This document shows, piece after piece, positions 6,499-49,758 of a stretch of 64,000 bases of DNA. Position 1 is the stretch's first letter; each line of letters starts with the position of its first letter. Source of the DNA: a virus. Its lineage: Duplodnaviria; Heunggongvirae; Uroviricota; Caudoviricetes. The DNA is taken from positions 189,593-253,592 of the IMG/VR virus record IMGVR_UViG_3300020577_007233; one strand, given 5' to 3'. The notes under the pieces are model-generated. The model was not told the origin of the DNA. It worked only from the letters and a program-made list of their open reading frames with translations, and searched no databases. Made by a program: the position numbers and the translations under genes.

Positions 6499-6622
6499 AT
6501 CCTTTTCACTCCCACTCACGTTGGTTTTTATATGTGAGGATGGTATAAAACAATAATACCATAGATTACTCTATGGTACTATCGGATTTACCAATCTCCT
6601 CTATGTACTCAGCAAAATCGAA

Positions 6623-13622: not shown

Positions 13623-14233
13623 GCTGGCTCTCCAAATGGATTACCGTCAACCTTGATGAACTTTGACCATGAAGGAGGAACCGCAGAAGAAGCAAGTCTA
13701 GCAAATCTTGCATAGACAGGATTCCACTTTGGTCTCTCAGGCTTCTTCAAAAGCTTGAGACCTGCTTCGTCAGGAGTTCTGTCTGCCTTCTTTGCGTTGA
13801 TGTCAAGGCAGCACATGACAAGGTTCTCCCAGGTAGAGCCTCCGCCCTTTGACCTTGGGATAACGTGGTCCATTGTTGCAGTATCCATAGTGATTCTCTT
13901 ACCCGTGTACTGACACGTGTAATTGTCTCGAATCAACAGGTTTCTACGGCTGAGCTTTACTTCCCTTTGAGGAAGCTTCTCGTATTCCTGCAACACAATG
14001 ATTTCAGGAACTCTAACCTTCGAATGAGAAGTCGAGATAAAAAGATCTCCCTCCTTTACAGAAAGGTTCATCCAGTCCTCAAAGGTGTAAAGCTGATAGT
14101 CGTCTGGATCAACAATGCGTGCAAGATCGCTCATCACCTTAGTAATCGCCTTCTTGACAGGCATGATTGAAATAGGCGTCCAGCCCTTATTCAGGACCAG
14201 CGTTGGGAGAGTGATTGTTGATCGCTGCTTCAT
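13619..14233 (-). CDS. HNH endonuclease
   Basis: C-terminal H-N-H signature: TMDHVIPRSKGGGSTWENLVMCCLDINAKKADRTP. Confidence 0.75.
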   Translation of the reverse strand: MKQRSTITLPTLVLNKGWTPISIMPVKKAITKVMSDLARIVDPDDYQLYTFEDWMNLSVKEGDLFISTSHSKVRVPEIIVLQEYEKLPQREVKLSRRNLLIRDNYTCQYTGKRITMDTATMDHVIPRSKGGGSTWENLVMCCLDINAKKADRTPDEAGLKLLKKPERPKWNPVYARFARLASSAVPPSWSKFIKVDGNPFGEPA

Positions 14234-14765
14234 TTGTTACTTCTGCTTTTATGCTCAGGTTATCAAGAAAGGCCTTGATAAACTCTTCGCTTGTGTCTAT
14301 GACCGTTATTTCGATTTGTGCATCGTAATCCTGAGAAATGTGAGCCATTCTCTTCGCTACTTCTTGCTTGCTAAGTCTTCCTATTCCACATCCTAAACCA
14401 CCAAACGCAATTGACTTCTGACCTGTAGAAACCGCTGTATCAAGAACCTTTCGAAGCAGATTCCCTATCGTGCCTAAAGAAGTATGACCTCCTGGGAACT
14501 TCATAGTTACTGCGTGATAGACAAGGTTTACACCTCTACGCTTCAGTAATCCTGCGTCTGAAACGTATAGATCGCCCGCTTCGTATGGACCACCCTCATC
14601 AACCACCTTCTTGACGTTCGCTCTCAGCAAATCTCCACCAGAACGAGCAATAGCTCCCGCTACGCCAGCGCCCATGACGCCAATACCATTGGCCGCGTTG
14701 ACAATAACATCAATGTTTTCGACCTTGGTAATGTCGCCTTGGATGACTTTCATGGATGCTCTCAA
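14187..14765 (-). CDS. Macro domain protein (ADP-ribose binding/processing)
   Basis: VIQGDITKVENIDVIVNAANGIGVMGAGVAGAI with SIAFGGLGCGIG match the macro-domain signature. Confidence 0.8.
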   Translation of the reverse strand: MRASMKVIQGDITKVENIDVIVNAANGIGVMGAGVAGAIARSGGDLLRANVKKVVDEGGPYEAGDLYVSDAGLLKRRGVNLVYHAVTMKFPGGHTSLGTIGNLLRKVLDTAVSTGQKSIAFGGLGCGIGRLSKQEVAKRMAHISQDYDAQIEITVIDTSEEFIKAFLDNLSIKAEVTNEAAINNHSPNAGPE

Positions 14766-34099: not shown

Positions 34100-37000
34100 T
34101 TATCCGATTATTCTTCTATACCAAGTACCAAAAGCTTGACGAGGTTGATTTGGATCATTCTCGCCTCCCTCATTGAGTTCTCTTTCTTCTTCCCAAAGAT
34201 CAGGATTGAGATTATCTTGGAAAGCTGCATCTTTACCAGCTTGTCTCAAGATTTCGTTCAAGTCAGCAGCAAGTTGCGCCTGATTTGCACGATCTTCAGC
34301 CCTTGCTTCCTTAAGCTGCTGCTGAACTTCGGTATCATCCATACCTGCAAGCAACGTTTCTTCTGCTTTTGCATCAAGATCTTGAACAATACCTGCAATG
34401 CGGATCTTGTTCCTAACGAATCTGTAGAAAACCTCGTCAGGATTAAGCTTCTTGTTTCCGTTAGCATCTACCCCTTCGGCTCTGACAACCATATATCTTG
34501 TGTTTACGGGCATGAAGTTATTGATACGGAAAGCTCTACCCTCAGCCTGCTCGCAAACCCTAGGCGTCCAGTCAAAGTCGTTCATAAGAACGTGTTGAGT
34601 GGAGTTTTCCATACTGATACCAGTACCACCCTTGAGTGCAGCAACAACCATAGCCCTTGCCATAGTGTCTTCTCTTTTGAACTCATCAACAGCGGCTTGG
34701 ATGTTTGCGCCCTTGTCGCCGTCCATAACGTGTACAACCTTTAGGTCTGGGTCTATGCCAGCAAGATGTTCCTGTAGGCCTCTAACCAGATCTCGGCATG
34801 TATCCTTAAAGCAGGAGAAGATAAGAACCTTTTCTCCTTGATCAATCAAGGCAGTAGCGTCAGCAAGTGTCTTTGGAACTTTTCTCTTAGCTAGAACAAG
34901 CCTTGATGCTGTTAGATTACAAATTGCCGCATTTGGGTTCTTGTAGGCGTTGAGTTTGTTCTGAAGCTCAACAGCAAAGCCGTCCATATCAAAATCAGCT
35001 TCGTCAATATACTCTTCTCCAATAGTGTGTTGAGGAATGTCTGGATTCATGGACTTTTGAGACCTGCTCAAATATGCGCCAGACAAGGTTAGCCATTTAC
35101 GAAGATTGTAAGCTCCCTTTTCTTGAGCCTCAATAGCTTCCTTGACGTTCATGTTTTTCATGGTCGCCTTAGAGCCAATAAACTCATTGGTAAAGTCTCT
35201 TGTTGAAAGCTCTCCAAGGGTGTGTCCTGTTATTCTTAGGACATTATGAATGTCAGCCGCTGTGTTTGCTGCTGGCGTTGCAGAAGCCGCCCACTTAAAG
35301 GGAATCTTTGGAGCCAGATCAGAAAGGTTCTTAGCGATACTTGTAGTTTCGTTCTTAAGCATATGTGCTTCGTCAAACACAACAACAGTCCACTGACCTG
35401 TATACAAAGCGTCGAGATAAGCTTGAGAAGTTGCTCTTGCAACCGTTGGAGCGCCGCTCGGTCTTCTTATTGCTCCCTCTGGTCCCTTCTTTACGTTGGA
35501 TGAGATATCAGAATATGACATAATAACCCATTTTGCATTAGACGCAGGATTCGTGCTTACTTGAGCAGGATCTTCTCCTAGCTTTTGCACGATTTCTCTC
35601 ATCCACTGTGTTTGGGTATTTTTGAGCGTGAAGATAAGGATTCTTCCGCCGCTTTGAGCAACTCTCATCTTTGCTGCTGCAATGGTGGAGAGAGTCTTAC
35701 CTGTACCAGTCTTGTCTCCAAGAATGGCACTGTTTCTTTGATACAACCAAGCAACACCTTGCTTCTGTTTTTTGAAGAGTTTAGCTCCAGGAACGGCAGC
35801 GTCCGTTTCATTAAAGAAACGGTTATAGTCCCATTCAAGTTCACCATTCTTCCTTTTCTGAACACCATCTTCAATAACAGCATAGCCATCTAGCTCGCCG
35901 GTATATCTTGTTCTTTCAAGCTTCTTGTCATTCAGTAAGCGAGCCAAAAGAATTCGAATGCTATTAACGTCCCATTGGCTCTTCTTCAAAAGAAGACTAA
36001 ACCTAACGAAGTCGTCGAAAGAACCCCAAATAAACCAACCGTTGTTCTGTTCAAGTCTCATTCCTGTTGGCTTATGTCTTTCAGGCTTTGGTTGCTCTTG
36101 AGGGTTTGCAGGGTTATCCTGATTGCCTCCCATAGGAAGCTGAGGTTGCTGAGGAATGAATCCTCCCCTAATATCGTCGTATTTTTCTGGTCGCAAGTCA
36201 GTAAGATTGCCCTTACTTGGGAAAGAGAATTTGATGAAATCTCCAAGCTCTTCTCTAGAGCCAGGAGTCTGAGGACTTCGCACAAACATGAAGAACTTTG
36301 TTCTTACGCTTGCATCTTCAACTACGAGAATCTTGTTAGGGTCGAGCTTCGCTATATTCTTCTCAGTTAGCTGTTGATCGTACTTATCAATAGCATCAAT
36401 GAAGTCTTGTACATTATACTCTCTCTTCCTCATAAAAGAGGCGAGAGCATGAAGTTGCGATGGAACTGTTCCTTTTTGTCTCGAAAAGACATAGGAAGCG
36501 ATAGGTCTAATAGAAACCTCTTGACCGCCGATACGCTCTTGGCGTATGTAGTTCATAATTTCTTGATTATAGTTGAAGCGAATGGCAATAGCGTCCCAAG
36601 TTGGAACCTTAACTTCAACAGTCTTTTCGTCAGCAAGAGGTTGTTGCCCGGCTTGATCTTCTCCGCCAGCGGCAACTTGCATAGCAACTTCTTCAAGGGG
36701 TGCGGTATTGAAACCAATACCCTTAAGAGCAGCGTTCATTGCGTCAAAAGCTCCCTTGTCGCTAATCATAACATGGAAGTAGGGGCCGTCAATTTGAGCC
36801 TTAGAGAAAACAAAGAACGGAGCAGGCTCAATCTTGTTTCGATTCTTAGTGTTTTTCCATGTTGCCCATTCAGGATACTTACCGTTTCCGTCTTTAAGTC
36901 CATCAACAAACTTCTTGGCTATGCCTTGAAGCTTTTTGAATTCAACCTCAGTAAGGCCTTCCAATCTAACAATGGCTGTAATTCTTCCGGTTTTACCCCA

Positions 37001-37270
37001 AGCGTGATTCTGTAGAACAGCTAGTTGCCTTTGTCCTTGCGGAGCCTGATTATCAGCGGGCGCAACTGCGGGAGCAGCGGGGACAGCCGCTTGATTTGCG
37101 GGAGCAGCGGGAGCAACAGGAGCAGCCGGTTGAACCTCATTAACAGGAGGTTGAACTGGTTGTTCAGGATTGCCGTCTCCCAAAGGATCGCCATTATTCA
37201 GAGGATCTGGATTTCCTCCGTTTTGAGACAATCTAACTAGCCTATCAATTTTGAAGTAGCTTGATAACAT
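34100..37270 (-). CDS. SNF2-family helicase with large N-terminal extension
   Basis: Motif I GDKTGTGKTLSTIAAA, motif II VVFDEAHMLKN and motif VI QAEGRAFRIN. The N-terminal region of about 500 aa includes a Pro/Ala/Gln-rich low-complexity tract. Confidence 0.85.
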   Translation of the reverse strand: MLSSYFKIDRLVRLSQNGGNPDPLNNGDPLGDGNPEQPVQPPVNEVQPAAPVAPAAPANQAAVPAAPAVAPADNQAPQGQRQLAVLQNHAWGKTGRITAIVRLEGLTEVEFKKLQGIAKKFVDGLKDGNGKYPEWATWKNTKNRNKIEPAPFFVFSKAQIDGPYFHVMISDKGAFDAMNAALKGIGFNTAPLEEVAMQVAAGGEDQAGQQPLADEKTVEVKVPTWDAIAIRFNYNQEIMNYIRQERIGGQEVSIRPIASYVFSRQKGTVPSQLHALASFMRKREYNVQDFIDAIDKYDQQLTEKNIAKLDPNKILVVEDASVRTKFFMFVRSPQTPGSREELGDFIKFSFPSKGNLTDLRPEKYDDIRGGFIPQQPQLPMGGNQDNPANPQEQPKPERHKPTGMRLEQNNGWFIWGSFDDFVRFSLLLKKSQWDVNSIRILLARLLNDKKLERTRYTGELDGYAVIEDGVQKRKNGELEWDYNRFFNETDAAVPGAKLFKKQKQGVAWLYQRNSAILGDKTGTGKTLSTIAAAKMRVAQSGGRILIFTLKNTQTQWMREIVQKLGEDPAQVSTNPASNAKWVIMSYSDISSNVKKGPEGAIRRPSGAPTVARATSQAYLDALYTGQWTVVVFDEAHMLKNETTSIAKNLSDLAPKIPFKWAASATPAANTAADIHNVLRITGHTLGELSTRDFTNEFIGSKATMKNMNVKEAIEAQEKGAYNLRKWLTLSGAYLSRSQKSMNPDIPQHTIGEEYIDEADFDMDGFAVELQNKLNAYKNPNAAICNLTASRLVLAKRKVPKTLADATALIDQGEKVLIFSCFKDTCRDLVRGLQEHLAGIDPDLKVVHVMDGDKGANIQAAVDEFKREDTMARAMVVAALKGGTGISMENSTQHVLMNDFDWTPRVCEQAEGRAFRINNFMPVNTRYMVVRAEGVDANGNKKLNPDEVFYRFVRNKIRIAGIVQDLDAKAEETLLAGMDDTEVQQQLKEARAEDRANQAQLAADLNEILRQAGKDAAFQDNLNPDLWEEERELNEGGENDPNQPRQAFGTWYRRIIG

Positions 37271-37296: not shown

Positions 37297-40047
37297 TCAA
37301 CCAAATACCCCTAATTTCCTATACCAACTAGAAGAAGCTTGTTTTCCTTGCTTAGCGGCCCTTCTGTTGCAAAGATCGACAACTCTAGCGTCAGCCATAG
37401 CAACAGGATCAATTTCTTCGCACCTCAAATATCCAGAACTACCAGGCAGGGCAGAGGTTAGGAGCATGATAACAACATTGACATACTTCTCCTTAACATC
37501 TTCTCTAGCCTTTACAAAAGCAGGAAGTTTGGGATACTCTTTAGCCAAAAGACTGTAAGATATGGCAGCGTTTGTGTTTACTCTTTTTCTTAGATATGCG
37601 TCCAAGATTTCTGGCAACTGCTGTTGCTCTGGGTTTAGACTCAAATATACAGCAGGCTTCAAATTGATTGTCTTTACAATCTGTGGTATGTTTTCTTGAG
37701 CGTTATCAACGGCTTTTCTAAAATCAGGATCTTGCTGAAGCCTTGGATCAAAATACCCCTGACCGTCCAAAAGTTGTCTTTTGAGTGGGTCGCTCTTTAG
37801 AACGTGAGCCTTGTATGCGTCAAAAAGACCAGGATCGTTTCTGTACTCTTCATCAAACTTGACAAACTTACCAATGTTCATGTTAAGAACTTTTCTCTTG
37901 GTAATCGCAGCAAGCTGCTGAAAGGACGGAAGTTTGCGAACCCATCCAGGAGCAATGGAGTTGATTTCTCTGTCCATAAACTCATTGAGGAATATCGTGT
38001 CTTCCGTTTGTCTCTTATACGGAAGCTTGTGAGCGCCGCTAATTCTCTTAGCGTACTCGTCGCTTATTCTTTCAATGTTCTGCGCATTCTGAAAGAAGGC
38101 CTCAACAGACTGTCTTGGCATGTCTTGAGAGAAAAATCCAGCTTCAATAGCAGGACCGGCACTTTCTAACTTAGCCTGCTCTCTGTCCATTTCAAAGGCT
38201 CTGTCTTCGTTAAGTTCAGGCAGATACTTACCAATAGCTTCTTGCATCTTTTCAAGTTGCATATTGGCTATGTTGATTCTTCTTCTTTCTTCCTTAGTCT
38301 TTCTTGTTGCTCCGTGAGCGCTAGCTATCCAGTGTATGCCGCCCCTGTACTTAGCAAGGACAGCTTCTTTGAACATCTCTTTTCCTCTTGGGAAGATTTG
38401 CCAGTGATTAGGAACTCGATCCAAAACCTGTCCAACGTTTTCAGGAGCGTTCTGGTACATAACAGCAAGCCTACCATGAACATTGTCAGTAAAGGCAGGA
38501 TCATTCAACACAAAGTCAGGCATCTGTTGCGCATTGTTGGCAAGATTCTCAGCCAAAGCAAAAGCGTCATTACCGCCCAAGGCTTCAACTCTCTTAAACC
38601 AACCCTTCTTGCACGCATCTTGCATTGACTTAACGACAGCAGGATACTTGGCGAAGTTTTCGTTTTCTGTAACCCTGTTATAGAGTTCAGGACTTCTCTC
38701 AAGCTCGTTTTTGAACCACTCAAGCTCTTCGAGATTAGGAGTACCGTCTTCGTTGAAGAAGCTCTTGTTGAGGTTTCTTTCTTTGAGAATTCTGTCCCAG
38801 TGAGACCTAGCACTGCCGGTTATCTTAGGCTCAAGACCTTCTCTATATATCAAGTCAGTAATTTCGCGCCAATAAGCAGTAGGACAAGAACGACTAACTC
38901 CGTCTGCAAAGCTTTGATCGCCAGCTATCTCGTAAATTTGCTGATTTTGATTACCAAAGCGTATACCAACGTGACCCTTTCCATTGTCAACAAGAATCCA
39001 AAAATCTCCATCTGATAGATAGATTGGACCATTACTATTCTTCTTTGTACACCAAGAATTAGGGACAGAGAAGTTGTGAAGAATATCAAGGTTTCTGTCG
39101 TAAACTTGCTCTGCTGTTAGGGGATTGCCCTTTTCGTCTACTCCTGGCTTGGTGTTAGCCTTCATAGGAAGCTTAAGCCATCCAGATTGATTGTCCTTAC
39201 TAAACTCTTTCCTACCAGCCTCAATACTGTGATCAACAAGGTCTTTCTGATAGTCCTTGATTATGTCAATTCTAGAAGAGCCATTTTGATCAATAGCTCC
39301 TTGAACCTGATCAACAGGAATTCCTGTTTCGGCAGATATCTGTTCGGTAGTCTTGCCTTCCTTATTAAGAGCAAGAATCTTCTTGTAAGCGGCTTCGTCC
39401 TTAATGGGGCCGTCATACTTGAATCTAACTCTCTTGAGCTTTTGAAACATCTGTCCAATAACAGCAGGATTCGCTGCTGGCGGAGGGTTGACTGTTTTGG
39501 CTTGAGAAGTTTCAACAACAGGATTCAAAAGCATGTAGATAAAGGCTGGATTGGCAGCATAGTCAGGATTCTCTATAAGATACTGCTTCCACCCATCATA
39601 TGTCTGTTGCTTCTGTCTATTGATAACGTTGAGATAGAATTTCTCAGCCCCTTCAGGGTTGTTTATGTACATCAAGTGAGCGTGTTCAAGCTCAGGATTG
39701 AAGATGTTATTTCTCTTGGCAAACTCATACTCTTTCTCTACGTCAAACTTCTTAGCAAAGTAGTTGTCAGGGTTCTCTGGATCCATTTTGGCAAAAAGCT
39801 TTGGAAGAACCATTAGCTGAATGTACTCTTGTATGTCTTTTTCGCCGTTCTTTGGGTCTATTTTCTTGGCAACGTCTTGCCCCGTCTCTTCGTTCTCAAC
39901 GTTATATCCACCCCACTTTATCATGGAGTCGAACTTCATAATGAAAAGTTGAAGGATTGGATCAACAACCTTATACTGTTGGATCTTCTCTTTCGGTCCT
40001 GCAACTTTTATCAATGGCCTTGCGGCAACATACCAATTCATCAGCAT
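37297..40047 (-). CDS. Large hypothetical protein (916 aa)
   Basis: Long uninterrupted ORF in the operon. No recognizable motif. Confidence 0.5.
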   Translation of the reverse strand: MLMNWYVAARPLIKVAGPKEKIQQYKVVDPILQLFIMKFDSMIKWGGYNVENEETGQDVAKKIDPKNGEKDIQEYIQLMVLPKLFAKMDPENPDNYFAKKFDVEKEYEFAKRNNIFNPELEHAHLMYINNPEGAEKFYLNVINRQKQQTYDGWKQYLIENPDYAANPAFIYMLLNPVVETSQAKTVNPPPAANPAVIGQMFQKLKRVRFKYDGPIKDEAAYKKILALNKEGKTTEQISAETGIPVDQVQGAIDQNGSSRIDIIKDYQKDLVDHSIEAGRKEFSKDNQSGWLKLPMKANTKPGVDEKGNPLTAEQVYDRNLDILHNFSVPNSWCTKKNSNGPIYLSDGDFWILVDNGKGHVGIRFGNQNQQIYEIAGDQSFADGVSRSCPTAYWREITDLIYREGLEPKITGSARSHWDRILKERNLNKSFFNEDGTPNLEELEWFKNELERSPELYNRVTENENFAKYPAVVKSMQDACKKGWFKRVEALGGNDAFALAENLANNAQQMPDFVLNDPAFTDNVHGRLAVMYQNAPENVGQVLDRVPNHWQIFPRGKEMFKEAVLAKYRGGIHWIASAHGATRKTKEERRRINIANMQLEKMQEAIGKYLPELNEDRAFEMDREQAKLESAGPAIEAGFFSQDMPRQSVEAFFQNAQNIERISDEYAKRISGAHKLPYKRQTEDTIFLNEFMDREINSIAPGWVRKLPSFQQLAAITKRKVLNMNIGKFVKFDEEYRNDPGLFDAYKAHVLKSDPLKRQLLDGQGYFDPRLQQDPDFRKAVDNAQENIPQIVKTINLKPAVYLSLNPEQQQLPEILDAYLRKRVNTNAAISYSLLAKEYPKLPAFVKAREDVKEKYVNVVIMLLTSALPGSSGYLRCEEIDPVAMADARVVDLCNRRAAKQGKQASSSWYRKLGVFG

Positions 40048-40271: not shown

Positions 40272-42401
40272 TTAGCCCTCTCGTAGAAAATCTTGAGGCT
40301 TGTTAATCCTGGCATACCAGCCAGATGCCCTGGTCCTAGGACGTACTACCTTCTTTTTGATTTTATTAGCCTTTTCCTCTTCTTTTCTTTTGTATTCCAT
40401 ATGTCTAACTACCTGAAGCATCTCTGGAGTGTAATCAGTTGTTTTTGCAAAAAACTTGACTATCCAAGAAGGCACCTTGAAGTTTTGCTTTGTTATTTCT
40501 CTTCTTATATGCTCTTCAACGTCCATGTCCATGTTGTAAGGGAAAGAATCTCTTCTTGCTTCGGTCTCTGCGTAATCTCTTGCCTTTTGAGACTCTTCTT
40601 CCCATTCGGAATAAGCAGCTTGATATTCTTTCGTGGTAAGAAAGTCGCTTTCGTCAGGCTCCGGTCCAACACCAAGATCGCTATCGTCCCAATAGAAGTT
40701 CGAATCAAACTCCTCATTGTTCTTTTGTATCTTTTCTCTAGCAACACCTATTTGAGAAATCGCATCTATCGCCCTGCTCATGTACTTTCTTTGAAGTTCA
40801 GGAGGCAATTCATCAATACTCTTAATTCCGCTCGGAAATACTCTTTCTGATTGTCTGTTCTCAAAAGCTTGCATTCTAATCTGTTCTCTTTGAGCGACAG
40901 GATCGAACGGCATTCCCATGTTCTCAAGCCTTTGTCTTACGATCTTTTCGGCTCCAGGCAAATAGTCCTTAAGCATTGTGTCCATGTACTCTGGTCGAGT
41001 CTTCTTGTAATCCGTTGGATAGTGCTTTTTGTCTCCGTTAGCAATCTGAGTTGCTTTGGCTTTCATCTTTCGTACATCAAAGTCACCAGCCTTGATGCCC
41101 GCAATATCAGACAACACGGCTGTTCTACCAAGAACCTCTCCACAACCTCTTGCTGCATAACCAGAACCATCTCTAGACCTTCTGCTGACATAGTTTTCAA
41201 CAGCATCATAAGCGTCATCAAAAACCCACTTCTCCAAAGGCGTTGGTCCATACATCCCGTTTCCATAGATGATTTCTTCCAAATCTTCATCTAAAGAATT
41301 ACTTCTTCCAAGGTCGTAATCAAACTCGCCTCTCATTCTTTTGGCGTTGTCCTCAAACCCATCAATAGCCATAACTCTTTCAGAAGCATACTGAAGAGCG
41401 TCTTCTCCTCCAACCTTATTGGCGTCCATCATAAACTGAGGATCATCTTTAAGTTGATCGGAAGCCAAAACGGTTGCTCTAGGATTCTCTTTGATGGCCT
41501 TGAAAAGAAGAATCTGATCGTTTGCACTTTCCTCCGTAGAAAACTGCATCAACATCTTGTAAGGAATGCCAAGCTTCTTGGCGTACCTTTCTCCAAGAAT
41601 ATCAAACAAACCTCTAGGCAAAGAAGTTGGCTCGTCATTGATATCCATAACTTGATTTAGTTGAGGGTCCATCTGTAGTACAGGTCTACCACCTTTAGTC
41701 ACGATGTAAAGATATCCATACTCTTTGATATAGCGGTCTGCTTGACAGTGAGGATAATCAGCCCTTGTACACCATTTCGTTCCTACTCCAAGCTTGGCTA
41801 CAGACTTCGGATCACTGACTTGATAAACCATAGAACCGTCTTCAAGGCTCTTAACAACTTTGACGCCTGGCATTCTAGCTGGATCGTTTTCTATTACACC
41901 AGCTTTAGGTCCGCTTTCAACGTACTTTTCAAGCTCTCGCTCAAGCGCAAGCAAATCAGGATACTTGTTGATATCCTTTTCCAAAGGAATGCCAGGTCTA
42001 TTCCTGAGCATCTGAAAGTTCTTCAAAGCAGCAAACATTCTAGGACCGTCTTCTGCTGGTATGAACGAAAATCTTGGATTGTTAAGTAGGCCGTTTACCC
42101 AAGGAACAAACTCCTTGGGAATCTTCGCATAAAAGACACCCTTTTCCCCAGGTTTCTTGAATCTCTCCTCAAGAACAGGCATCGCCACTTGTTTAGGTTG
42201 TTTTTCAGGAATTGGCTGAGTTAGAAGAGTTTGTATTCTTCTTCGAAGCCAAGATTCGTCAAGGCCAGGAGTTCTGTTAAGCTCAGTACCTATGGCTTTT
42301 TGCACATGCTTTGGTAAAGTCATAACGTAACTAATAAAGTCAGGGCTGTAACCCTGTTGAGTAAGAAAGACATTAAGTTGCGCAAAAACATACCAACTCA
42401 T
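40272..42401 (-). CDS. Large hypothetical protein (709 aa), paralog-domain protein A
   Basis: It shares a segment with the next gene (KLGVGTKWCTRADYPH versus ELGKGTKWCTNADVDG). Confidence 0.5.
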   Translation of the reverse strand: MSWYVFAQLNVFLTQQGYSPDFISYVMTLPKHVQKAIGTELNRTPGLDESWLRRRIQTLLTQPIPEKQPKQVAMPVLEERFKKPGEKGVFYAKIPKEFVPWVNGLLNNPRFSFIPAEDGPRMFAALKNFQMLRNRPGIPLEKDINKYPDLLALERELEKYVESGPKAGVIENDPARMPGVKVVKSLEDGSMVYQVSDPKSVAKLGVGTKWCTRADYPHCQADRYIKEYGYLYIVTKGGRPVLQMDPQLNQVMDINDEPTSLPRGLFDILGERYAKKLGIPYKMLMQFSTEESANDQILLFKAIKENPRATVLASDQLKDDPQFMMDANKVGGEDALQYASERVMAIDGFEDNAKRMRGEFDYDLGRSNSLDEDLEEIIYGNGMYGPTPLEKWVFDDAYDAVENYVSRRSRDGSGYAARGCGEVLGRTAVLSDIAGIKAGDFDVRKMKAKATQIANGDKKHYPTDYKKTRPEYMDTMLKDYLPGAEKIVRQRLENMGMPFDPVAQREQIRMQAFENRQSERVFPSGIKSIDELPPELQRKYMSRAIDAISQIGVAREKIQKNNEEFDSNFYWDDSDLGVGPEPDESDFLTTKEYQAAYSEWEEESQKARDYAETEARRDSFPYNMDMDVEEHIRREITKQNFKVPSWIVKFFAKTTDYTPEMLQVVRHMEYKRKEEEKANKIKKKVVRPRTRASGWYARINKPQDFLREG

Positions 42402-44740
42402 TTGTTTTTTCCAATAACTTGAATCTGCTCAGGAAACCAAGCAACAACCCATTGTTCATTTTTCTTGCTTGGGTCTATGTTGTTTCCGTGATTTACAACG
42501 ATACCGTCATATCCTGTTGCCTTGCTAATGAACCTAAGAACCTTTTCAAAGTTACTCTTATTGAAAAGATCGTACAGAATGAAAGCCGAAGACTTACCGA
42601 TGTATACTCTTGCCATACTCTCAAAAACAACCCTTTCGCCTTCAGTTGCAACATCTCCAAAGTTGTCTAGAATCTGCTTGCCTTCTAACTGTACGGCCAA
42701 CTTTAGAAGACCCCTTGTTTGATTAGCGGTTAGAGAAGGAAAAATATCAAAAGCACTTGACTGTTCAATATGTCCAGACGAAATTTGAATAGGCTTCTTT
42801 AGGTTTACCTTTGCCTGCATAACTCCAGGAGACGGTCCTCCTTGTCCATAATTGCCTGCTGTTTCTCGTCTGCTTGTGAAATAAAAACCAGGACCGTATT
42901 GGTCATTGCCTTGTCCTATGTAGTCATAAACAAAGCCTCTTTCTTGTATAGAGTTTTGGTCGCCAGTTCCGTGAAATACATTGTACTCAGGAAAGTCCGC
43001 TCTTTTGTACCAACCTCTTTTCGAGGTGCTTACACCAAGAAAACCAAAGTTTGATTGATAGTAATTGGAAACAGAGCTATCTTTGCTTGAAAGAATGAGG
43101 CGTTCCATTTCGGGCCATCTTGCTTTCATTATATGAACAGCATACTGACCGGCTGCCCAGCCGTTCTTAAGTTCCATGATTCTTTTTTCAAGCTCAGTCC
43201 ATCTCTGTCTTACAACATCTCTTGCGTAATACAACGCTTCGCTTAAGCCTCCCCATCTGTCATTGAGTAAGTAGTTCTCAACTTCAGGCCATCTTCCCTT
43301 GATAACTTCTTTGGCATATTCATACATATCCCAGATCTTGCCGCTATCAATAATGGCTTTTTCAAGCTCAGGCCATCTGAGGTTACAATTCTTCGCATAC
43401 TCTATAGCGTATTCCTGCGAGTAGTGCTGCTTGCCAGTTTCTAAGAGATAGTCTTCAAACCTCTTCTCTGCTCTTTGAGAACCATTCAAATACCAAAGAT
43501 ACCCAACAAGCTCTTCAGCACGATTCGGGTTCTTCATTATGGCCGCTTCATACTCGGGCCAAGGAGTGAAATCTCCACCTCCTGGCTTGCCCTGTCCATA
43601 ATTGTAGTCCGAATATCTGTCTTTCCAGTATTCAAAAGCATATGATGAATTGATGATTTTGGCTTCTTGATTTGGGTCTCTCCAACGAAGACCTTGCTGA
43701 CTAACTGCGTCTAGGTACTCTGCTATCCTGTTACCATCTGTAACTCCATAGTTCTTGAGTTTTTTCGCGTCAGAAGGAAGTTGGTTAAAGATGATCTTAT
43801 CTTCAACAGCCTTAAGTCTGCCAAATTTCTTTGCGTATTCTAGCATGTCATCAAAAGCATAACTTGGGAATTTGCCATCGTCTTCTTCTTTAACCTTTTC
43901 CATGAAGAAGTTCGCAAGATCCACATCTGCTCCCTCATAAGAAATGTTGAAAGCGTAGTTCTGAAGGAAGTCGTCCTTTTTGATGCTGCCTCTTTGTATA
44001 AGCTCTCTAATCAGAGAAATGAAAGATGGAGTAGGCTTTTTGATGGGCCTGTCAAGAATATCCATGACCTGATCAAGAGAAGACGTTGCTTGAGCATACT
44101 TTTCCCACTTGCCGCCATTGTTATGCAGAAACAACAAAAGAGGACCGCCCTCTAAATACATTTGAGCGTTTTCGTAGCCGTCAACATCTGCGTTTGTACA
44201 CCACTTGGTTCCCTTACCAAGCTCACAAACAGCTTCAGGAGTTGTCATCTCAAGAACTCGCCATTCGTTATCTCGAAAAATCTCCCTACTACCCTGCATC
44301 TTGATGTTTTTGGCAACCTGTCTTTTGCTTGCTTCGTCCTTGACGCCAAGAACCTTTCCAACAGCAACTTCAAGATCTCCAAGAGAAGGATATTGCTGTA
44401 GGTTTTTAAGCTCAAACTTGTTGTTCTGTTGAGTAAAGATAGTTAGAGCATTCGTAAGTCTTCCAAGGTCTTCTGGTAGCCTTATTTGACCGTTAACAAG
44501 CCACCCATATATGAAGAACAGAAAACGATTGGGGATTCTACCTTGAACAGTATGAAGGTATGCCTTGTAGTTGTTGAGATGGTACTCAAGCCTCGAAGCT
44601 CCTTTTTCGTTTGTAAGCTTTGATAGCTCAACCGCCGTTCCACGGTCCCAGTCGTTTAGGTTTCTTAAATAGGTTTCAGCGCTTGGGCTAAACCCCAACG
44701 CTTGATAGTTGATATCAGCTATGCGAACGAACCAATTCAC
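42398..44740 (-). CDS. Large protein (780 aa) with shared GTKWCT domain, four tandem RWPExE helical repeats and C-terminal ART/PARP-like motif block
   Basis: Four repeats in a row: NLRWPELEKAII, KGRWPEVENYLL, RQRWTELEKRIM and KARWPEMERLIL. The C-terminal NVFHGTGDQNSIQERGF...GPGFYFTS...FILYD resembles the PARP/Tpt1 H-G-[ST] ... Y-F-x signature. Confidence 0.5.
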   Translation of the reverse strand: MNWFVRIADINYQALGFSPSAETYLRNLNDWDRGTAVELSKLTNEKGASRLEYHLNNYKAYLHTVQGRIPNRFLFFIYGWLVNGQIRLPEDLGRLTNALTIFTQQNNKFELKNLQQYPSLGDLEVAVGKVLGVKDEASKRQVAKNIKMQGSREIFRDNEWRVLEMTTPEAVCELGKGTKWCTNADVDGYENAQMYLEGGPLLLFLHNNGGKWEKYAQATSSLDQVMDILDRPIKKPTPSFISLIRELIQRGSIKKDDFLQNYAFNISYEGADVDLANFFMEKVKEEDDGKFPSYAFDDMLEYAKKFGRLKAVEDKIIFNQLPSDAKKLKNYGVTDGNRIAEYLDAVSQQGLRWRDPNQEAKIINSSYAFEYWKDRYSDYNYGQGKPGGGDFTPWPEYEAAIMKNPNRAEELVGYLWYLNGSQRAEKRFEDYLLETGKQHYSQEYAIEYAKNCNLRWPELEKAIIDSGKIWDMYEYAKEVIKGRWPEVENYLLNDRWGGLSEALYYARDVVRQRWTELEKRIMELKNGWAAGQYAVHIMKARWPEMERLILSSKDSSVSNYYQSNFGFLGVSTSKRGWYKRADFPEYNVFHGTGDQNSIQERGFVYDYIGQGNDQYGPGFYFTSRRETAGNYGQGGPSPGVMQAKVNLKKPIQISSGHIEQSSAFDIFPSLTANQTRGLLKLAVQLEGKQILDNFGDVATEGERVVFESMARVYIGKSSAFILYDLFNKSNFEKVLRFISKATGYDGIVVNHGNNIDPSKKNEQWVVAWFPEQIQVIGKNK

Positions 44741-47115
44741 TTGGCTTTCTTTCCTTTTGCCTTAATGTACCAACCCTTCCTTGTCTTTTTCTTTTTCGCA
44801 GATGCATCAACCTCTCGACCCTTCTTTTTCTTGTCTTCACTAGGAGCAAGAACATGAAGCTGTTTCATGGCTCTTGTAAATGCAACATACTTGGCATTCT
44901 CTTCTTGATCCAAAGCATCTGGTGTTTTGGACTTAGGGTGAGGGAAAAGATTTGGCTCAAGAATGTAAACTCGATCAAACTCCAAACCCTTAGATCTGTG
45001 AGCGGATGTCAAAGTTACATATGACAATGGATCTTTGTTACGCAACTTCTCAGCTTCGCCCGCATCGTCAATGTTGACGCCAGCAAACTTGCTCTTGATG
45101 AAATTGATGAACGTTTCGCTATCAGTAACCCTCATATTCAGACCACGATCAGTAAAGCCGTTAGCCTCCAAGTGACCAACGATATTACCCAAAGCCTCCG
45201 TAACCGCCTTCATATCCTTAAGCTCAGCTTCTTTGCTGATCTTGTTGCGCCATTTTGCCTCAGTCTCTGTATAGAAAGAGTCCAAAACCTGTCCAAGCTG
45301 CTGAATAGGAACCCTTCTAGAGTTTCTGCCGCTTCCTACAACCTTCTTAAGATGGTCAATAAGCTCTTTTGAGAAGTCTCTTCCAATGATAACGAAATCA
45401 ACATTCGACTTCATCAATGACAATGCTGTGTTTACCAATGGAGCATTTGTTCGCGCAAGGAATGCAGTCTGAGCCGACAACCTTCCAGTTCGAGCTTTTT
45501 CATTAGCAATGCCCCCTAAAGCGTCCTCGGCTTTAGTGCCTTCCGTTACTTGGCCGTCAAAGTCCCTACCAGCAACCAAGTTCTTAACCTTAGTCTTCTG
45601 ATTGACATACTGAATAATGTTGCGACCGCTACGGTAGTTGACAGGAAGCTCATGGGGGACATTTCCGTTTGGAGCATTACCCAAAACGCCCTGAACCTTA
45701 TTGAAAGCCTGAGCATCAGCGCCTCTAAACATATAGATAGCCTGATTAGGGTCGCCTACTGCAACAATTCTTGCGCCAGCCTCAGATAGCTTTTGCAACA
45801 TAATTGTTTGACAAGTATTGAAGTCCTGAACTTCATCAGCCAAGACTACATCATACTTTGGGAACTTGACATCAGGGCTTATTGCAGAATACCACAAAGT
45901 ATCATCATGGTCTCTCATTCCCTCGCACTGAGGAACATTGCAATTTCCGGGCAAACAATAATACAGAAGATCTAGAACCTTGTCTATAATCTGAGGCTTG
46001 AACGTTTGAGCATTATTCGCCGGTTTTGAGTTGTTTGTTGTAAGGTCCGTATCAATGCTGTACTTTGTAATGATTGAGTCAATGTCTGTTGCGGCAGTTT
46101 GAGACTTAGGATGAACGGCAAAAGCCTTTGCAAGGCTTGCAACTTGCTTGATTGTTTGCTTTGCTGCGTACTTGACCGAGTTAGGAAACGTATTGTCTCC
46201 GTCCATCATAGCGTCTGCCATGATAGCTATTCTTTCCCCACCCTGATTCCATAAGTCTGTAAACTGAACCGCACCCAACTCTGCGCTTCGACCTAATACT
46301 TGTCCCAAAAAGCTGTGACTCGTCTTAACTTCAACGCCATTAGGAAACTTACCCTTACCCGTAGAGGCCTCGACTTGATTCTTCTTGTTGAAGACCAAGT
46401 AAAGCCATTTCTGATTTGGGTCTTTGAAAGATGCTAAGTGACGAAGCATCGTTGTCTTACCTGAACCAGCAAGAGCGTTAATCATTATGCTTTGAGGAGT
46501 ATTGAGGAATGATTCTTCTATTTCTTTTTGTTGCGGGCTTATTCTTTCAGCAGGAATTCGTCCCTGTACCTTATTGGGATCTTCCGCAACCGCCTCTTCC
46601 GCCTTCGCCCCTTCGTCGCCCCCAACTTGATTGTTAAGCTCACGGAATTTTTTGAAGAGCATAGACGGGACTTCGCCAGAAATTTTTTGGCCCCTATCAT
46701 CCGCGACACTTTTTACGACCTTCGCTATTTCCGCGGCTGGGATCTCCGCTCCCGTTCCGTCTTCCTTCATGTACTCCCAATAGTTGCCCTTTTTCGATAC
46801 AACCACCGGAATGCCCCCATCTAACATTGTAGCCAAAAACCAAGTTTTTCGCGCAATAGGTTGAACAACAGCATTGGGAGGCTGATTTTGCGGCTGCTGA
46901 ACTTGAGGCTGATTAGGACGAGGCATAGGAGCCTTCGGAACCTGATTCTTAGGAGCGTCAACAAGATTTACAAGACCCTTGCAACCAGGATAGTTGCTGC
47001 AACCATAGAACTCCCCATACGGACCCTTACGCAACTTCATGGTTGCTCCGCACTTCGGGCAATATACCTCTGCGGTTACAGTCTTCGAATGCTTTGTCAT
47101 CTTGTACCAACTCAT
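44737..47115 (-). CDS. UvrD/PcrA-like SF1 helicase with N-terminal topoisomerase-type C4 zinc ribbon
   Basis: The N-terminus has CPKCGATMKLRKGPYGEFYGCSNYPGCKG. Helicase motifs follow: NALAGSGKTTML (I), VLADEVQDF (II), YRSGRNII (IV) and TSAHRSKGLEFDRVYIL (VI). Confidence 0.85.
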   Translation of the reverse strand: MSWYKMTKHSKTVTAEVYCPKCGATMKLRKGPYGEFYGCSNYPGCKGLVNLVDAPKNQVPKAPMPRPNQPQVQQPQNQPPNAVVQPIARKTWFLATMLDGGIPVVVSKKGNYWEYMKEDGTGAEIPAAEIAKVVKSVADDRGQKISGEVPSMLFKKFRELNNQVGGDEGAKAEEAVAEDPNKVQGRIPAERISPQQKEIEESFLNTPQSIMINALAGSGKTTMLRHLASFKDPNQKWLYLVFNKKNQVEASTGKGKFPNGVEVKTSHSFLGQVLGRSAELGAVQFTDLWNQGGERIAIMADAMMDGDNTFPNSVKYAAKQTIKQVASLAKAFAVHPKSQTAATDIDSIITKYSIDTDLTTNNSKPANNAQTFKPQIIDKVLDLLYYCLPGNCNVPQCEGMRDHDDTLWYSAISPDVKFPKYDVVLADEVQDFNTCQTIMLQKLSEAGARIVAVGDPNQAIYMFRGADAQAFNKVQGVLGNAPNGNVPHELPVNYRSGRNIIQYVNQKTKVKNLVAGRDFDGQVTEGTKAEDALGGIANEKARTGRLSAQTAFLARTNAPLVNTALSLMKSNVDFVIIGRDFSKELIDHLKKVVGSGRNSRRVPIQQLGQVLDSFYTETEAKWRNKISKEAELKDMKAVTEALGNIVGHLEANGFTDRGLNMRVTDSETFINFIKSKFAGVNIDDAGEAEKLRNKDPLSYVTLTSAHRSKGLEFDRVYILEPNLFPHPKSKTPDALDQEENAKYVAFTRAMKQLHVLAPSEDKKKKGREVDASAKKKKTRKGWYIKAKGKKAK

Positions 47116-47220: not shown

Positions 47221-48291
47221 ATGAACTGGTTCCGTCTTGCAAAGTTTGGACAAATATGGAACGTTGAGTATCACACCGATTCTCTCGAAGCCTGCCTCTC
47301 CGCCCTCTACCAACTAACCTATAAATACCAACAACTTCAAATCCATAAGTTCAAAGGCCACCCTAAACGTCACGAAAACATTCTTCTCGGAATAGAACAA
47401 AGAGCAAGACAAGTCATACAAGATACAATCAATATTCTCGAACCAGCCTTCTCTAAATGGTTAGCTCAACACGCTATCACCAATCCCGTTGCATGGGGAA
47501 CTAACCACATAGACCAACAATTCGAAATGGCAGAAGGTTCGCCAGATGCCCTTGGAACAATGTTCAATAACTTCACGCTTTGGACTGGAGAGAATAGAAA
47601 GATTGTTATACCGCCAGATACGGTAGCTGAACACCTTGATGCTCCCCTTCGAAATGGACAAATGCCATATCTTGCCCAATGGTTCAAAGCCGTCAAAGCT
47701 GAAATGGCCGAAGGAGACAAAGAAAATCAAGGCGAGCTTGATACTCGTCCAGAAGAACAAATAGATGAATATTATGAACAGCTTGACTTTTCAGATTACT
47801 TTGCTGAGTTCTATGAAAACAACTGGGTCTATATGATGGAGCAAATAGCCCAACATCAAGATATCTACGAAGTAGCGAAAGAAATTGCATCCTACGGTCT
47901 ATTCCCAGAATGGTTCGGCTATTGGAGAAGCGTAGGTATAGAACAAACAAGAGAAAATGTAGAGCAAGCCTATGCCCTCATCCATCAACTCAAATCGCAA
48001 CCTATAGATAAAGCTCTTGCTAATATCAATATCATCATCAATACATGCCACCAGAATGGCGATATGCTCGAATACATAACAGAAGAAACAAGCGAAAGCG
48101 TTTCTCATCTCAAAGAAGTTATGTCCTATTACTCCAATCTCTCAGATAGCTCGCCTGAAATGAAAGATTGGAATAAACAACTTCGTGGCGTTGGTACAAA
48201 GTTTCCTGTTGTTCGTAGGCCAAAACAGCCTACAGAGCCGATTGTGCCGCAGCAAGAAGCAACGCCGCAAAACCCCAATGAAGCTTTGTAA
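47221..48291 (+). CDS. Hypothetical protein
   Basis: 356-aa plus-strand ORF, first gene of a two-gene plus-strand island. Confidence 0.5.
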   Translation: MNWFRLAKFGQIWNVEYHTDSLEACLSALYQLTYKYQQLQIHKFKGHPKRHENILLGIEQRARQVIQDTINILEPAFSKWLAQHAITNPVAWGTNHIDQQFEMAEGSPDALGTMFNNFTLWTGENRKIVIPPDTVAEHLDAPLRNGQMPYLAQWFKAVKAEMAEGDKENQGELDTRPEEQIDEYYEQLDFSDYFAEFYENNWVYMMEQIAQHQDIYEVAKEIASYGLFPEWFGYWRSVGIEQTRENVEQAYALIHQLKSQPIDKALANINIIINTCHQNGDMLEYITEETSESVSHLKEVMSYYSNLSDSSPEMKDWNKQLRGVGTKFPVVRRPKQPTEPIVPQQEATPQNPNEAL

Positions 48292-48343: not shown

Positions 48344-48907
48344 TTGCAATTACAGAGTATGAGAAAAGCATTCACACTGATCGAGCTTCTTGTTGTTATA
48401 GCTATCATTGCTTTGTTGCTTTCTATACTCATACCATCCCTTGCTAAAGCAAGAGACACAGCTAAGAGTATTGTATGCACTACAGGCCTAAAGCAAATCG
48501 CAACAGGCATTGCTATGTATGTTAACACTCATAGAGACTATCCAGATGCATATGGCAACCAATCTGTTGTTTCAGGTATCAACCTTCCTGATAAACTTGA
48601 ACCATACCTAGATGCTCCATTGCCAGTACCAGGCCAAAAGCTTAGTCCTTGGGTATGCCCCTTTGATAAAGAAATGTATCCTATTACGGGCGGTAGCTAT
48701 ATGTATGCCCCATACTACTATAGAATATGGTTCAAGCCCTCAATCACAACAATCTTTGAAACAGTCCCGCTGCTTCCAATGATAAGAGACTTCTATCCAA
48801 GAAGAAATAACCTAGTTCATATTGCTAGAGTTGATACATCTACTGATGAAGTTGACCAAACAACCTACGCTCCCGGCGCAAGCTGGCTTAATGCTAATCG
48901 TAGATAA
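48344..48907 (+). CDS. Prepilin-type N-terminal cleavage/methylation domain protein (type IV pilin/pseudopilin-like)
   Basis: MRKAFTLIELLVVIAIIALLLSILIPSLAKARDTAKSIVCTTGLKQIATG is a classic class-III signal. It resembles the DUF1559 (H-X9-DG) pseudopilin-like proteins of Planctomycetes and Verrucomicrobia. Confidence 0.7.
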   Translation: MQLQSMRKAFTLIELLVVIAIIALLLSILIPSLAKARDTAKSIVCTTGLKQIATGIAMYVNTHRDYPDAYGNQSVVSGINLPDKLEPYLDAPLPVPGQKLSPWVCPFDKEMYPITGGSYMYAPYYYRIWFKPSITTIFETVPLLPMIRDFYPRRNNLVHIARVDTSTDEVDQTTYAPGASWLNANRR

Positions 48908-49324
48908 TTACTTAGGTTTGCCAGGGTTCAACTTACGAGCAATGCCATTAACAACATCAACAGCCTCTTTGCTTGCTGGCATTCCCTTAACTCTGTTGTA
49001 CTCTTCGTGAGTACCTATCCAATACCATACATAGTAAGACTGATACTTCAAAGCTAAAGCTCTATGACCGCCGCCTACCTGAGCAGACCATATAGGTATC
49101 TTGAAGCCGTTTTCAACCATTGGCTTGATGCCAACTTGTTGAGGATTGGATAGCAACATTTGATACTTTTCGTTTGCAAGCTTCTGTATCTGAGGCGGCA
49201 ATTTTCTAAGCAAATCCCTAAAGCCCTTTGTCTGCCAATGACCAGTGCCAAAGCCAGCAGCCTTTGTTAGGCCATACTCGGCTCCTAGCTTGTCTTCATA
49301 TGATTGTGAAAAGATAACTTTCAT
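48908..49324 (-). CDS. RelE/HigB-superfamily-like protein (tentative)
   Basis: The C-terminal ...FKIPIWSAQVGGGHRALALKYQSYYVWYWIGTHEEYNRV resembles the HigB C-terminus (...HKIFVKHIVSHAEYDKL). Confidence 0.35.
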   Translation of the reverse strand: MKVIFSQSYEDKLGAEYGLTKAAGFGTGHWQTKGFRDLLRKLPPQIQKLANEKYQMLLSNPQQVGIKPMVENGFKIPIWSAQVGGGHRALALKYQSYYVWYWIGTHEEYNRVKGMPASKEAVDVVNGIARKLNPGKPK

Positions 49325-49758
49325 CAGAACTCCACTATCCTACCGCCAGGAAACTTGTTATACAAAAGCCTATGCACAAGAGACTGCGCTCTATCTAAAG
49401 CCGGACTCTTAACTACAGATATAATGCGATTCTTCGCATCATACCTTCCTTTGATGGCATTGAGCCTGCCACCAAACTCCGCTCCAAAAATCTCATCATG
49501 AACAAACGAATAACCCCTGTTGCCCTTCTTATACCACTCGCCAGCAGTCTCTGACTCTATCTGACCATTCCTAAAAATCCAAATAGCATCGTTCGGATTC
49601 GGAGGAGGTAGCTTGGCATTCCTATCGTCATGAGGATCAGGGTCGGCGCTAGTCCAACTATGACCTTGAGCAAGATAACCATGCCTCCACCAGGGATCTT
49701 CAGATGCTTTAAGTAGCTTATACCACATTGTTGGGCTGCTCTCCTGAGCGATTAGCAA
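49324..49758 (-). CDS. Hypothetical protein
   Basis: 144-aa ORF with a 1-nt overlap. Confidence 0.4.
   Translation of the reverse strand: MLIAQESSPTMWYKLLKASEDPWWRHGYLAQGHSWTSADPDPHDDRNAKLPPPNPNDAIWIFRNGQIESETAGEWYKKGNRGYSFVHDEIFGAEFGGRLNAIKGRYDAKNRIISVVKSPALDRAQSLVHRLLYNKFPGGRIVEF

Follow-up and report, generated by a model that had tools for sequence, protein, structure and literature searches.

The stretch of DNA considered here (the window) is 64,000 nucleotides long, covers positions 189,593 to 253,592 of the IMG/VR virus record IMGVR_UViG_3300020577_007233, a member of the Caudoviricetes, and carries two large neighbouring genes on its minus strand, which encode proteins of 780 and 709 amino acids. 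The first lies at 42398..44740, has a GTG start and overlaps the stop of an upstream UvrD helicase gene by 4 nt. The second, which on the list of open reading frames (ORFs) spans 40272..42401, encodes its paralogue, and both are placed exactly as in an earlier note on this DNA. On balance the 780-aa protein is best read as a modular phage effector, plausibly delivered with the virion, in which a constant carrier part is combined with a swappable ADP-ribosyltransferase (ART) payload.

From its N-terminus the 780-aa protein runs through a tag, the carrier domain, a set of RWPE repeats and a W-Y junction to the ART payload, and among its homologues are P0001, at 89% identity, and 55 more. The tag, (M/V)NWFVRIA (residues 1-8; 44717..44740), has its counterpart in close homologues, which start M[STNR]WF[IFL]RIAD, and residues 1-4 are probably disordered since their predicted local distance difference test score (pLDDT) is low. 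The carrier, or TKWCT, domain occupies residues 38-248 (43997..44629) and contains the motif G-K-G-T-K-W-C-T-N-A-D at residues 175-186 (W180, C181; 44183..44218). Four tandem RWPE repeats, as the earlier note had described, follow at residues 442-550 (43091..43417) with a period of 28-30 aa. They are recognised by a hidden Markov model (HMM) built from 221 homologous repeat units, with independent E-values from 3e-7 to 5e-14, at residues 442-464, 469-493, 499-523 and 525-550, and have RWPE/RWTE cores at residues 455, 483, 513 and 541, a consensus of '..dp..A..YA..VIKGRWPEAEP.ILk' and a weak fifth unit at residues 394-403. Pfam matches of homologues to Phage_FRD3, HTH_35, YunG-like, DUF982 and other families were rejected as true domains, as they comprise no significant stretch and represent summed RWPE-repeat matches. 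Finally, the W-Y junction S-K-R-G-W-Y-K-R-A-D (residues 573-582; 42995..43024) sits within a linker of ~35 aa and leads into the ART-PolyVal domain at residues 585-780 (42401..42988).

The identity of the payload is the firmest part of this assignment. Residues 588-779 match the Pfam family PF18760 (ART-PolyVal) with 38.2 bits against a gathering threshold of 31.2 (E 2.9e-9), and all nine ART-only homologues are also annotated with PF18760. An AlphaFold2 model, built on an alignment with 11 homologues, has a pLDDT of 86.4 and a predicted template modelling score of 0.83, and it displays the split beta-sheet of the PARP/diphtheria-toxin division of the ART fold, with strands 4 and 5 separated by a helical insert of ~80 aa. 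A profile search of Protein Data Bank (PDB) sequences aligned FHGT with the catalytic His motif of the PARPs and GxGFYFT with the PARP 'GKGxYFA' Tyr motif, the matches being PARP12 (E 0.003), PARP14 and PARP10. In a single-sequence phmmer search of the same collection the ART region and residues 1-566 returned chance Rab matches or none, and PF00644, the PARP catalytic domain, gave no match at E <= 1. All 12 aligned sequences, the most divergent at 27% identity, share H590, G591, Y620, Y631, D745, P770, Q772 and I773. Of these, H590 (42971-42973) is in strand 1 of the model, Y620 (42881-42883) is in strand 2, Y631 is encoded at 42848-42850, and D745 (42506-42508), the third conserved ART element, lies within G-Y-D-G-I-V-V at or just before the start of strand 5. 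The ARTs of polyvalent proteins (Tox-ART-HYD2-like) are described as having a His in strand 1, a Tyr in strand 2 and an Asp in strand 5 (Iyer et al. 2017; PMC5512222), which is the arrangement of H590, Y620 and D745. Sequence and model thus point to a PARP/diphtheria-toxin-type ADP-ribosyltransferase with an apparently intact active site. The Y-x10-Y spacing of Y620 and Y631 also agrees with that of Y54/Y65 in diphtheria toxin and Y896/Y907 in PARP1.

To which of the known ART types does the domain belong? The earlier note had based its PARP and Tpt1 likeness on an HG[ST]/Y[FY] signature together with a FILYD segment. FHGT and GFYFT carry H590 and Y620 and align with the PARPs as described, but FILYD is unconserved and falls in the helical insert. 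Both residues that were to be lost in homologues if the idea was wrong are thus retained in all 12 sequences, and the predicted fold, on which the idea had also been staked, is that of an ART. The PARP part of the comparison stands at the level of the PARP12/14/10 motifs; the H-Y-E triad of the PARPs is not found, as the third position is an Asp and the Glu of PEQI is replaced in 2 of 12 homologues. Tpt1/KptA was not the closest similarity, and the Arg, Ser-x-Ser and Glu active site of T4 Alt and VIP2 is absent, so that, being of the H-Y-D type, the domain is neither Alt nor Tpt1, and the suggested kinship with Alt (of the R-S-E type) falls away. The domain is a new member of a family already known by prediction. 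That it binds NAD+ and transfers or cleaves ADP-ribose is very likely, and its target is likely to be a host protein rather than a nucleic acid or NAD+ itself.

Just upstream of UvrD, three related loci (L002 6091-6576, L005 7134-7613 and L006 5877-6374) each have a small ORF of 159-165 aa. These ORFs start MSWYKIAQSGFVTVYHGTS, MWYKAANETFVTLYHG and MWYTLASEGTVTLYHG, so that a W-Y tag precedes an ART-like 'YHG[TS]' strand, and they may represent a different small ART family. The L002 copy, a 161-aa ORF starting MSWYKIAQSGFVTVYHGTS and the one of the three that was scored against the ART profile, could not be established as an ART, as its match covers just the tag and YHGT within the first 22 residues. 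The window has no counterpart of these ORFs between 47115 and 47221.

The constant part of the protein centres on the carrier domain, which is where the relationship with the 709-aa neighbour resides. The two proteins are 30% identical over 178 aa (BLASTP E 4e-13), with GKGTKWCTNAD opposite GVGTKWCTRAD, and a profile of 38 family members matches them with E 5e-71 and 4e-48, respectively. The paralogy announced by the earlier note is therefore real but confined to these ~200 aa, the remainder being unrelated, and 'giant' was too strong a word for either protein. The carrier domain falls outside all Pfam, NCBIfam and annotated PHROG families, and the 38 members have no consistent Pfam match. In its AlphaFold2 model (pLDDT 88.6) a helical bundle (19-140) precedes an alpha/beta core (150-235), with the TKWCT motif in the loop that connects two helices. 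The alignment has W180 and C181 in every sequence, and P70, E90 and D91 (R-L-P-E-D), T178, Y195 and D230 are nearly invariant.

This family is large. With E <= 1e-3 as the limit, an HMM scan of 1.84 billion cluster representatives returned 11,898 proteins, each standing for a cluster at 50% identity; with E <= 1e-10 the number is 7,762. Carrier-domain proteins span 214-2,733 aa and contain from one to five copies in any position. RWPE repeats are also found in 123 of the 186 carrier-domain proteins retrieved, downstream of a carrier copy in every architecture displayed, and because of this co-occurrence and order the carrier and the repeats look like a recurrent dyad. The dyad also occurs with ART-PolyVal domains in giant proteins of 1,900-2,700 aa, namely P0085, P0086 (which adds cREC), P0092 and P0134 (with three ARTs), in which the ART is N-terminal, so that the order of the window is reversed. 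Five more carrier-domain proteins of ~1,900 aa gave no match when scanned with Pfam. When the carrier model was compared by Foldseek with viral models, a 'structural protein' of Pseudomonas phage PA5oct came top (E 4e-8), followed by uncharacterised phage and Marseillevirus proteins and two 'PcfJ-like' proteins (E 3e-4 and 2e-3). The PA5oct protein, EST35_0205, is 482 aa long, matches the carrier HMM with E 3e-42, has TRWCT as its motif and is annotated as a structural protein by electrospray ionisation tandem mass spectrometry (ESI-MS/MS). As far as we have checked, the carrier domain and its repeats, which Pfam leaves uncovered, lie outside published descriptions.

The 709-aa protein is organised as the tag MSWYVFAQ, the carrier domain (residues 61-273, with G-V-G-T-K-W-C-T-R-A-D; 41583..42221), a DUF4116 repeat (residues 300-342; 41376..41504), an uncharacterised stretch and a terminal W-Y junction. 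The DUF4116 match is of 26.2 bits against a cutoff of 24.9 and is stronger in orthologues (E 1e-22). The junction, S-G-W-Y-A-R-I-N (residues 693-700; 40302..40325), ends 9 aa before the stop, and the protein ends 14 residues past the Trp of 'RASGWYARIN'; so close behind the junction, the stop leaves no room for a payload. The orthologue P0198 (42% identity over the full length) runs from 'RASGWYNLLK' into ~260 extra residues with a GNAT domain at the end, and the orthologues in L005 and L006 likewise extend past the junction to a GNAT. The next protein, of 916 aa (37297..40047, minus strand), has W-Y tags at both ends and possibly a third, degenerate carrier core around S-W-C-T (residues ~325-357; nt 38977-39075, minus strand); this match, around NSWCTKKNSNGPIYL, is marginal (HMM E 0.0045; hhalign probability 57%, E 1e-4). 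Neither the 709-aa nor the 916-aa protein has RWPE repeats by the repeat profile.

The carrier position itself may be variable. On a 333-kb contig (L005, 12149-14557) the 802-aa orthologue of the 709-aa protein has a PcfJ domain (PF14284, E 2.4e-11) exactly where TKWCT would be, with conserved flanks and 'GKMGHCVGS' in place of the 'GVGTKWCTR' of the window. The two PcfJ-like Foldseek matches add to the likeness, whereas H-C in PcfJ stands against W-C in the carrier. PF14284 matches none of the 38 carrier sequences, a comparison of the carrier profile with the PcfJ region of L005 by hhalign was not significant, and literature searches on RWPE and PcfJ gave only cell-line and plasmid-name noise. 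A relationship between PcfJ and the carrier is therefore only suggested, and L005 reflects either displacement of one domain by another or extreme divergence inside one superfamily.

Fundamental to the modular interpretation is what lies beyond the W-Y junction in other phages. Close homologues of the 780-aa protein retain 40-89% identity over the carrier and repeats and diverge completely past the junction, which has the form [STGN]-W-Y-[KST]-[KR], lies ~30 residues past the last repeat and is present there in 13 of the 15. Beyond it are found four unrelated payload classes or a short tail. The ART of ~205 aa is shared by the window protein, P0001, P0008 and P0009; P0007, P0010, P0012, P0013 and P0014 have a ~185-aa module with an HExxH motif; an unrelated 130-aa module is found in P0002, P0003 and P0004; P0015 has a GNAT; and P0005 and P0011 have only a short tail. 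For instance, P0002, P0007 and P0010 have carriers that are 60-70% identical and C-termini that are unrelated. The payload is also found by itself: the stand-alone ARTs P0057 and P0058 start MSWYKKA and MNWYKKA (in full, MSWYKKADFPQYDVFHGT and MNWYKKAIKYDVFHGT) and are 55% identical to the window ART, and one of them is directly downstream of UvrD in L003. The UvrD of that locus has 'KNWYKKSQ' internally, and the C-terminal part beyond it finishes in a match to the end of the HExxH module. As orthologues of both carriers bear other payloads at this point, the junction is an effector-cassette exchange point, and as both proteins have payloads beyond it among their relatives, they are carriers built on one plan. 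The 780-aa carrier holds an ART, and its 709-aa counterpart is at present empty.

A conserved N-terminal part with unrelated C-termini in close relatives is the hallmark of polymorphic effectors. The combination of carrier, repeats and ART in one chain, with HExxH or GNAT in homologues, corresponds equally to the polyvalent proteins of Iyer et al. (2017), in which several unrelated domains, including hallmark effectors, share a chain; ART, zincin-like HExxH and GNAT are protein-directed enzyme classes typical of such proteins (PMC5512222). A MuF (Phage_Mu_F) domain was matched by neither Pfam nor PHROG, so the protein does not belong with the MuF fusions. To the extent that we have checked, a polymorphic-payload series on this carrier is outside published descriptions.

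The W-Y peptide is not restricted to the seam between carrier and payload. In the window, M-x(1,3)-W-[YF] begins the 916-, 709-, 780- and 792-aa proteins and a divergently transcribed 356-aa ORF (47221-48291), a 144-aa ORF (49324-49758) has MWYKLLKA at its probable start, and ...[STG]-W-Y-[RAI]-[RK]... occurs within the last 15 residues of the 1056-, 916-, 709- and 792-aa proteins; all these genes lie between 34 and 50 kb. Among the 51 called genes of four related loci (L002, L003, L005 and L006), 24 have W-[YF] in their first six residues where 0.8 are expected (binomial P 1.5e-29), and 10 have it in their last 20 residues against 3.1 expected (P 8e-4), so that this peptide of 4-6 residues is ~30-fold enriched at protein termini. 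C-terminal tags are kept between orthologues (...SSSWYRKLGVFG, ...RRWYRKLGTFA and ...KGWYRKAATTY), and the genes that bear the peptide, at the N-terminus and often also near the C-terminus, are otherwise unrelated, comprising helicases, small helix-turn-helix (HTH)-like proteins and uncharacterised proteins. In the ART and carrier models the tags are in the low-confidence ends, which are presumably disordered. At the DNA level the Trp and Tyr/Phe codons alone are common, and selection therefore acts on the peptide. A DNA recombination site or a translation signal could accordingly be set aside, as the sequences have TGG-TAY/TTC in common but differ in the bases around it.

About half of the genes of this conserved megaphage cluster thus have the junction or tag, a feature that, so far as our checks extend, has not been described. 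Literature searches of limited coverage found no W-Y signal of this kind, and we know of none. The bearers (UvrD, SNF2, both carriers, stand-alone ART and GNAT proteins and small HTH proteins) have it at the N-terminus, the C-terminus or an internal boundary. It is tempting, if doubtful, to see in [STGN]-W-[YF]-x-[KR/hydrophobic] a previously undescribed megaphage sorting or processing code that doubles as a cassette seam, in which case the common fate of its bearers would be capsid co-packaging or cleavage and the carrier a new component of a delivery system.

The surrounding genes form a conserved unit. Transcription proceeds from UvrD through the 780-, 709- and 916-aa genes to SNF2, all co-directional. 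UvrD (44737..47115, minus strand) is a 792-aa helicase with a Top1 zinc ribbon by Pfam, has tags at both ends (MSWYKM... and ...KGWYIKAKGKKAK) and is a syntenic partner, as is the 1056-aa SNF2-type helicase (34100..37270, minus strand; PHROG and NCBIfam matches), which ends ...GTWYRRIIG. The order UvrD, 780-homologue, 709-homologue, an optional AAA gene, 916-homologue and SNF2 is repeated on metagenomic contigs of 495,113, 333,623 and 119,352 bp, with UvrD synteny seen in L002, L003, L005 and L006. Because this order recurs on the 495,113- and 333,623-bp contigs, the window is taken to be a piece of a huge phage. Megablast of 24 kb of the window against a phage collection returned no match, and no close cultured relative was found. 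Intein or LAGLIDADG-type insertions were observed in the UvrD of L002 (6573-10004) and L006 (6371-9943) and in a 1,051-aa protein of L004 (2951-6106); the window UvrD lacks the insertions of the L002 and L006 copies.

Up to ~54 kb the window has 38-46% G+C and phage-like genes, including ribonucleotide reductase, AAA ATPases, DHH, HNH, Dam methylase, a macro domain and a prepilin-like protein, and no tRNAs were found along its length. The macro domain protein (14187..14765, minus strand; PF01661, E 3e-21) had been proposed in the earlier note as a cognate eraser of ADP-ribosylation. Its presence is clear, but the link to the ART amounts to co-occurrence within 64 kb at a distance of 28 kb, and a macro domain is nothing unusual in jumbo phages, being present in ~56% of them (PMC9503650). 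At the left edge an ORF of at least 2,190 aa (1-6570, minus strand) runs out of the window and matches DUF3383 in two stretches (E 3e-29); its product, unlike the two carriers, deserves the word giant. Prepilin-type proteins with an N-terminal methylation motif (FTLIELLVVIAII) and a weak DUF1559 match occur at 48344-48907 (plus strand), at 963-1508 and 4395-4952 in L002 and at 3834-4388 in L006, and they hint at a host in the Planctomycetes-Verrucomicrobia group. A weak ParE-like toxin match at 48908-49324 (minus strand; E 7e-4, under the Pfam cutoff) recurs, equally weak, in the syntenic L002. Between ~54000 and 64000 the composition shifts abruptly, with G+C rising from ~0.38-0.44 to 0.51-0.55 and a strongly negative AT skew, and the ORFs are small, on the minus strand and without Pfam matches; a ClpS adaptor homologue is found at 62172-62489 (minus strand; E 2e-19). 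The region may have been acquired as an island, may belong to a different element or may result from an assembly join. ClpS recognises N-terminal Trp, Tyr, Phe and Leu, which makes the homologue a curious presence beside W-Y tags.

How, then, might the parts work together? The 780-aa protein would be an effector of the polyvalent and polymorphic kind, made by a huge phage. Its constant part, consisting of the W-F tag, the ~200-aa carrier with its invariant Trp-Cys and the four RWPE repeats, would serve localisation or partner binding, and most likely would bring the protein into the virion for injection together with the DNA. A disordered linker ending in G-W-Y-K-R would join it to the payload, an H-Y-D ART-PolyVal domain that is predicted to use NAD+ for ADP-ribosylating a host macromolecule during early infection. 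The 709-aa neighbour would be a paralogous carrier running without a payload, and related phages would load theirs with a zincin-like HExxH domain, a GNAT or the 130-aa module. The carrier may act in docking, in target binding or in Cys-dependent catalysis, and the W-Y peptide may be a docking signal, a cleavage site or a mere recombination-tolerant seam.

For packaging into the capsid and injection the case is evenly poised. The neighbouring SNF2 and UvrD helicases and Dam methylase make up a polyvalent and Dar-type domain repertoire, which favours an injected effector as a whole. Packaging is indicated, indirectly, by the PA5oct carrier homologue, annotated as detected by mass spectrometry, and by the ART family, which was defined in proteins predicted to be packaged. 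A further, equally indirect indication of delivery is that the A4 ejection protein has a similar domain. Several points weigh on the other side. The link to virions runs via PA5oct and not via any protein of this phage, and the PA5oct homologue shares the carrier domain alone, having neither RWPE repeats nor an ART. The authors of the A4 structure left the similar domain unassigned. Within the 64 kb the gene cluster lies among replication and nucleotide-metabolism genes (ribonucleotide reductase, AAA, DHH and helicases) rather than head genes. As the carrier is multi-copy and occurs at any position, a binding or enzymatic module fits it better than a unique packaging signal. Finally, searches of the literature found no experimental study of ART-PolyVal (PF18760) and no biochemically characterised member.

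The strongest competing explanation, which we consider possible but clearly less probable than delivery, retains the same ART and dispenses with packaging. The enzyme would be made in the infected cell, like T4 ModA/ModB, and would act on host or phage targets, with the carrier and repeats providing target recognition or regulation and the W-Y tags intracellular sorting or assembly. The position of the cluster away from recognisable head-morphogenesis genes in the window and the multi-copy, position-independent nature of the carrier would both suit such an enzyme, as would the W-Y-tagged genes of related loci that encode small HTH/sigma-like proteins, which are not necessarily virion parts. 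Against it stand the detection of the PA5oct protein in virions and the fact that ART-PolyVal and the domains found with it characteristically belong to proteins for which delivery with the DNA is predicted.

Two further explanations concern what the parts do, and the probability of neither is additive with the others. The ART could modify nucleic acid, or hydrolyse NAD+ or NAD-derived immune signals, in anti-defence or host shutoff; this would be independent of the packaging question. It seems unlikely given that comparisons of structure and profile match the domain best to protein-modifying PARPs and to diphtheria toxin, and given that Iyer et al. place the family with protein-modifying ARTs (PMC5512222). 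More unlikely still, if compatible with a virion-delivered effector, is catalysis by the carrier itself, which as, for instance, a thiol-dependent peptidase or transferase would use Cys181 to cut W-Y junctions and free the payloads, much as has been proposed for the zincin MPTase. The invariance of W180 and C181, the near-invariant acidic residues E90, D91 and D230, the recurrent co-occurrence of the carrier with W-Y junctions and ART payloads, and its replacement in L005 by a PcfJ-like domain with an H-C motif would all be in keeping with catalysis; yet the carrier alignment holds no conserved His for a Cys-His dyad, there is no structural match to a peptidase, and the domain is found in many proteins that have no W-Y junctions. 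That the ART is a degenerate pseudo-enzyme, retained as a structural or binding module, is highly improbable, as all NAD-binding and catalytic positions are invariant even at 27-31% identity.

The virion-delivered effector favoured here resembles several known systems without coinciding with any of them. Injected or polyvalent phage ARTs are an established concept in comparative genomics (PMC5512222, PMC9503650). The window ART is akin to ART-PolyVal (PF18760; N4-ART/Tox-ART-HYD2-like; PMC5512222, PMC9503650) in its above-threshold score, its H/Y/D residues, its place in a large multidomain phage protein and its proximity to SNF2 and UvrD helicases and a methylase. It differs in being fused to a TKWCT and RWPE carrier rather than to MuF, vRNAP, MPTase or LPD domains and in its ~80-aa insert, within a family known from predictions. 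MuF-effector fusions and polymorphic toxins (CdiA with VENN, Rhs with DPxGL) share the principle of a constant N-terminus, a short junction peptide and a swapped enzymatic C-terminus. In contrast, the window protein contains no MuF, Rhs or CdiA domain and has no evident immunity gene, and its junction, [STGN]-W-[YF]-x-[KR], is also found at the extreme N-termini of many separate genes. T4 Alt is a proposed functional analogue, as a phage ART delivered with the DNA onto host proteins, but the R-S-E enzyme Alt (Alt/VIP2) has an N-terminal capsid-targeting sequence cut by gp21, and the H-Y-D ART of the window has no similarity to it. The Dar system of P1 (DarB methylase-helicase, DdrB and others) likewise consists of very large proteins, including superfamily 2 and superfamily 1 helicases, with an adenine methylase nearby; the P1 proteins are packaged in the head and injected, and the parallel with the window is one of domain content alone.

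The wider relevance of the locus concerns how phages choose the proteins that they inject. Of the host-modifying enzymes that phages inject, polyvalent-type ARTs are predicted to be some of the commonest. Selection of cargo for delivery is understood in a few model phages, through the capsid-targeting sequence of T4, the Dar system of P1 and the virion RNA polymerase of N4. The locus described here offers a compact system in this respect, with a ~200-aa ART that is capable of standing alone and has a clear active site, and it supplies a natural payload-swap series (ART, HExxH, GNAT and the 130-aa module) on nearly identical carriers. The carrier family, of ~11,900 clusters, is uncovered by current Pfam and has been seen in one virion proteome, and the W-Y peptide could be a signal for selection or processing. 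If the tag is indeed a packaging signal, the injected proteomes of uncultivated huge phages would become predictable from sequence.

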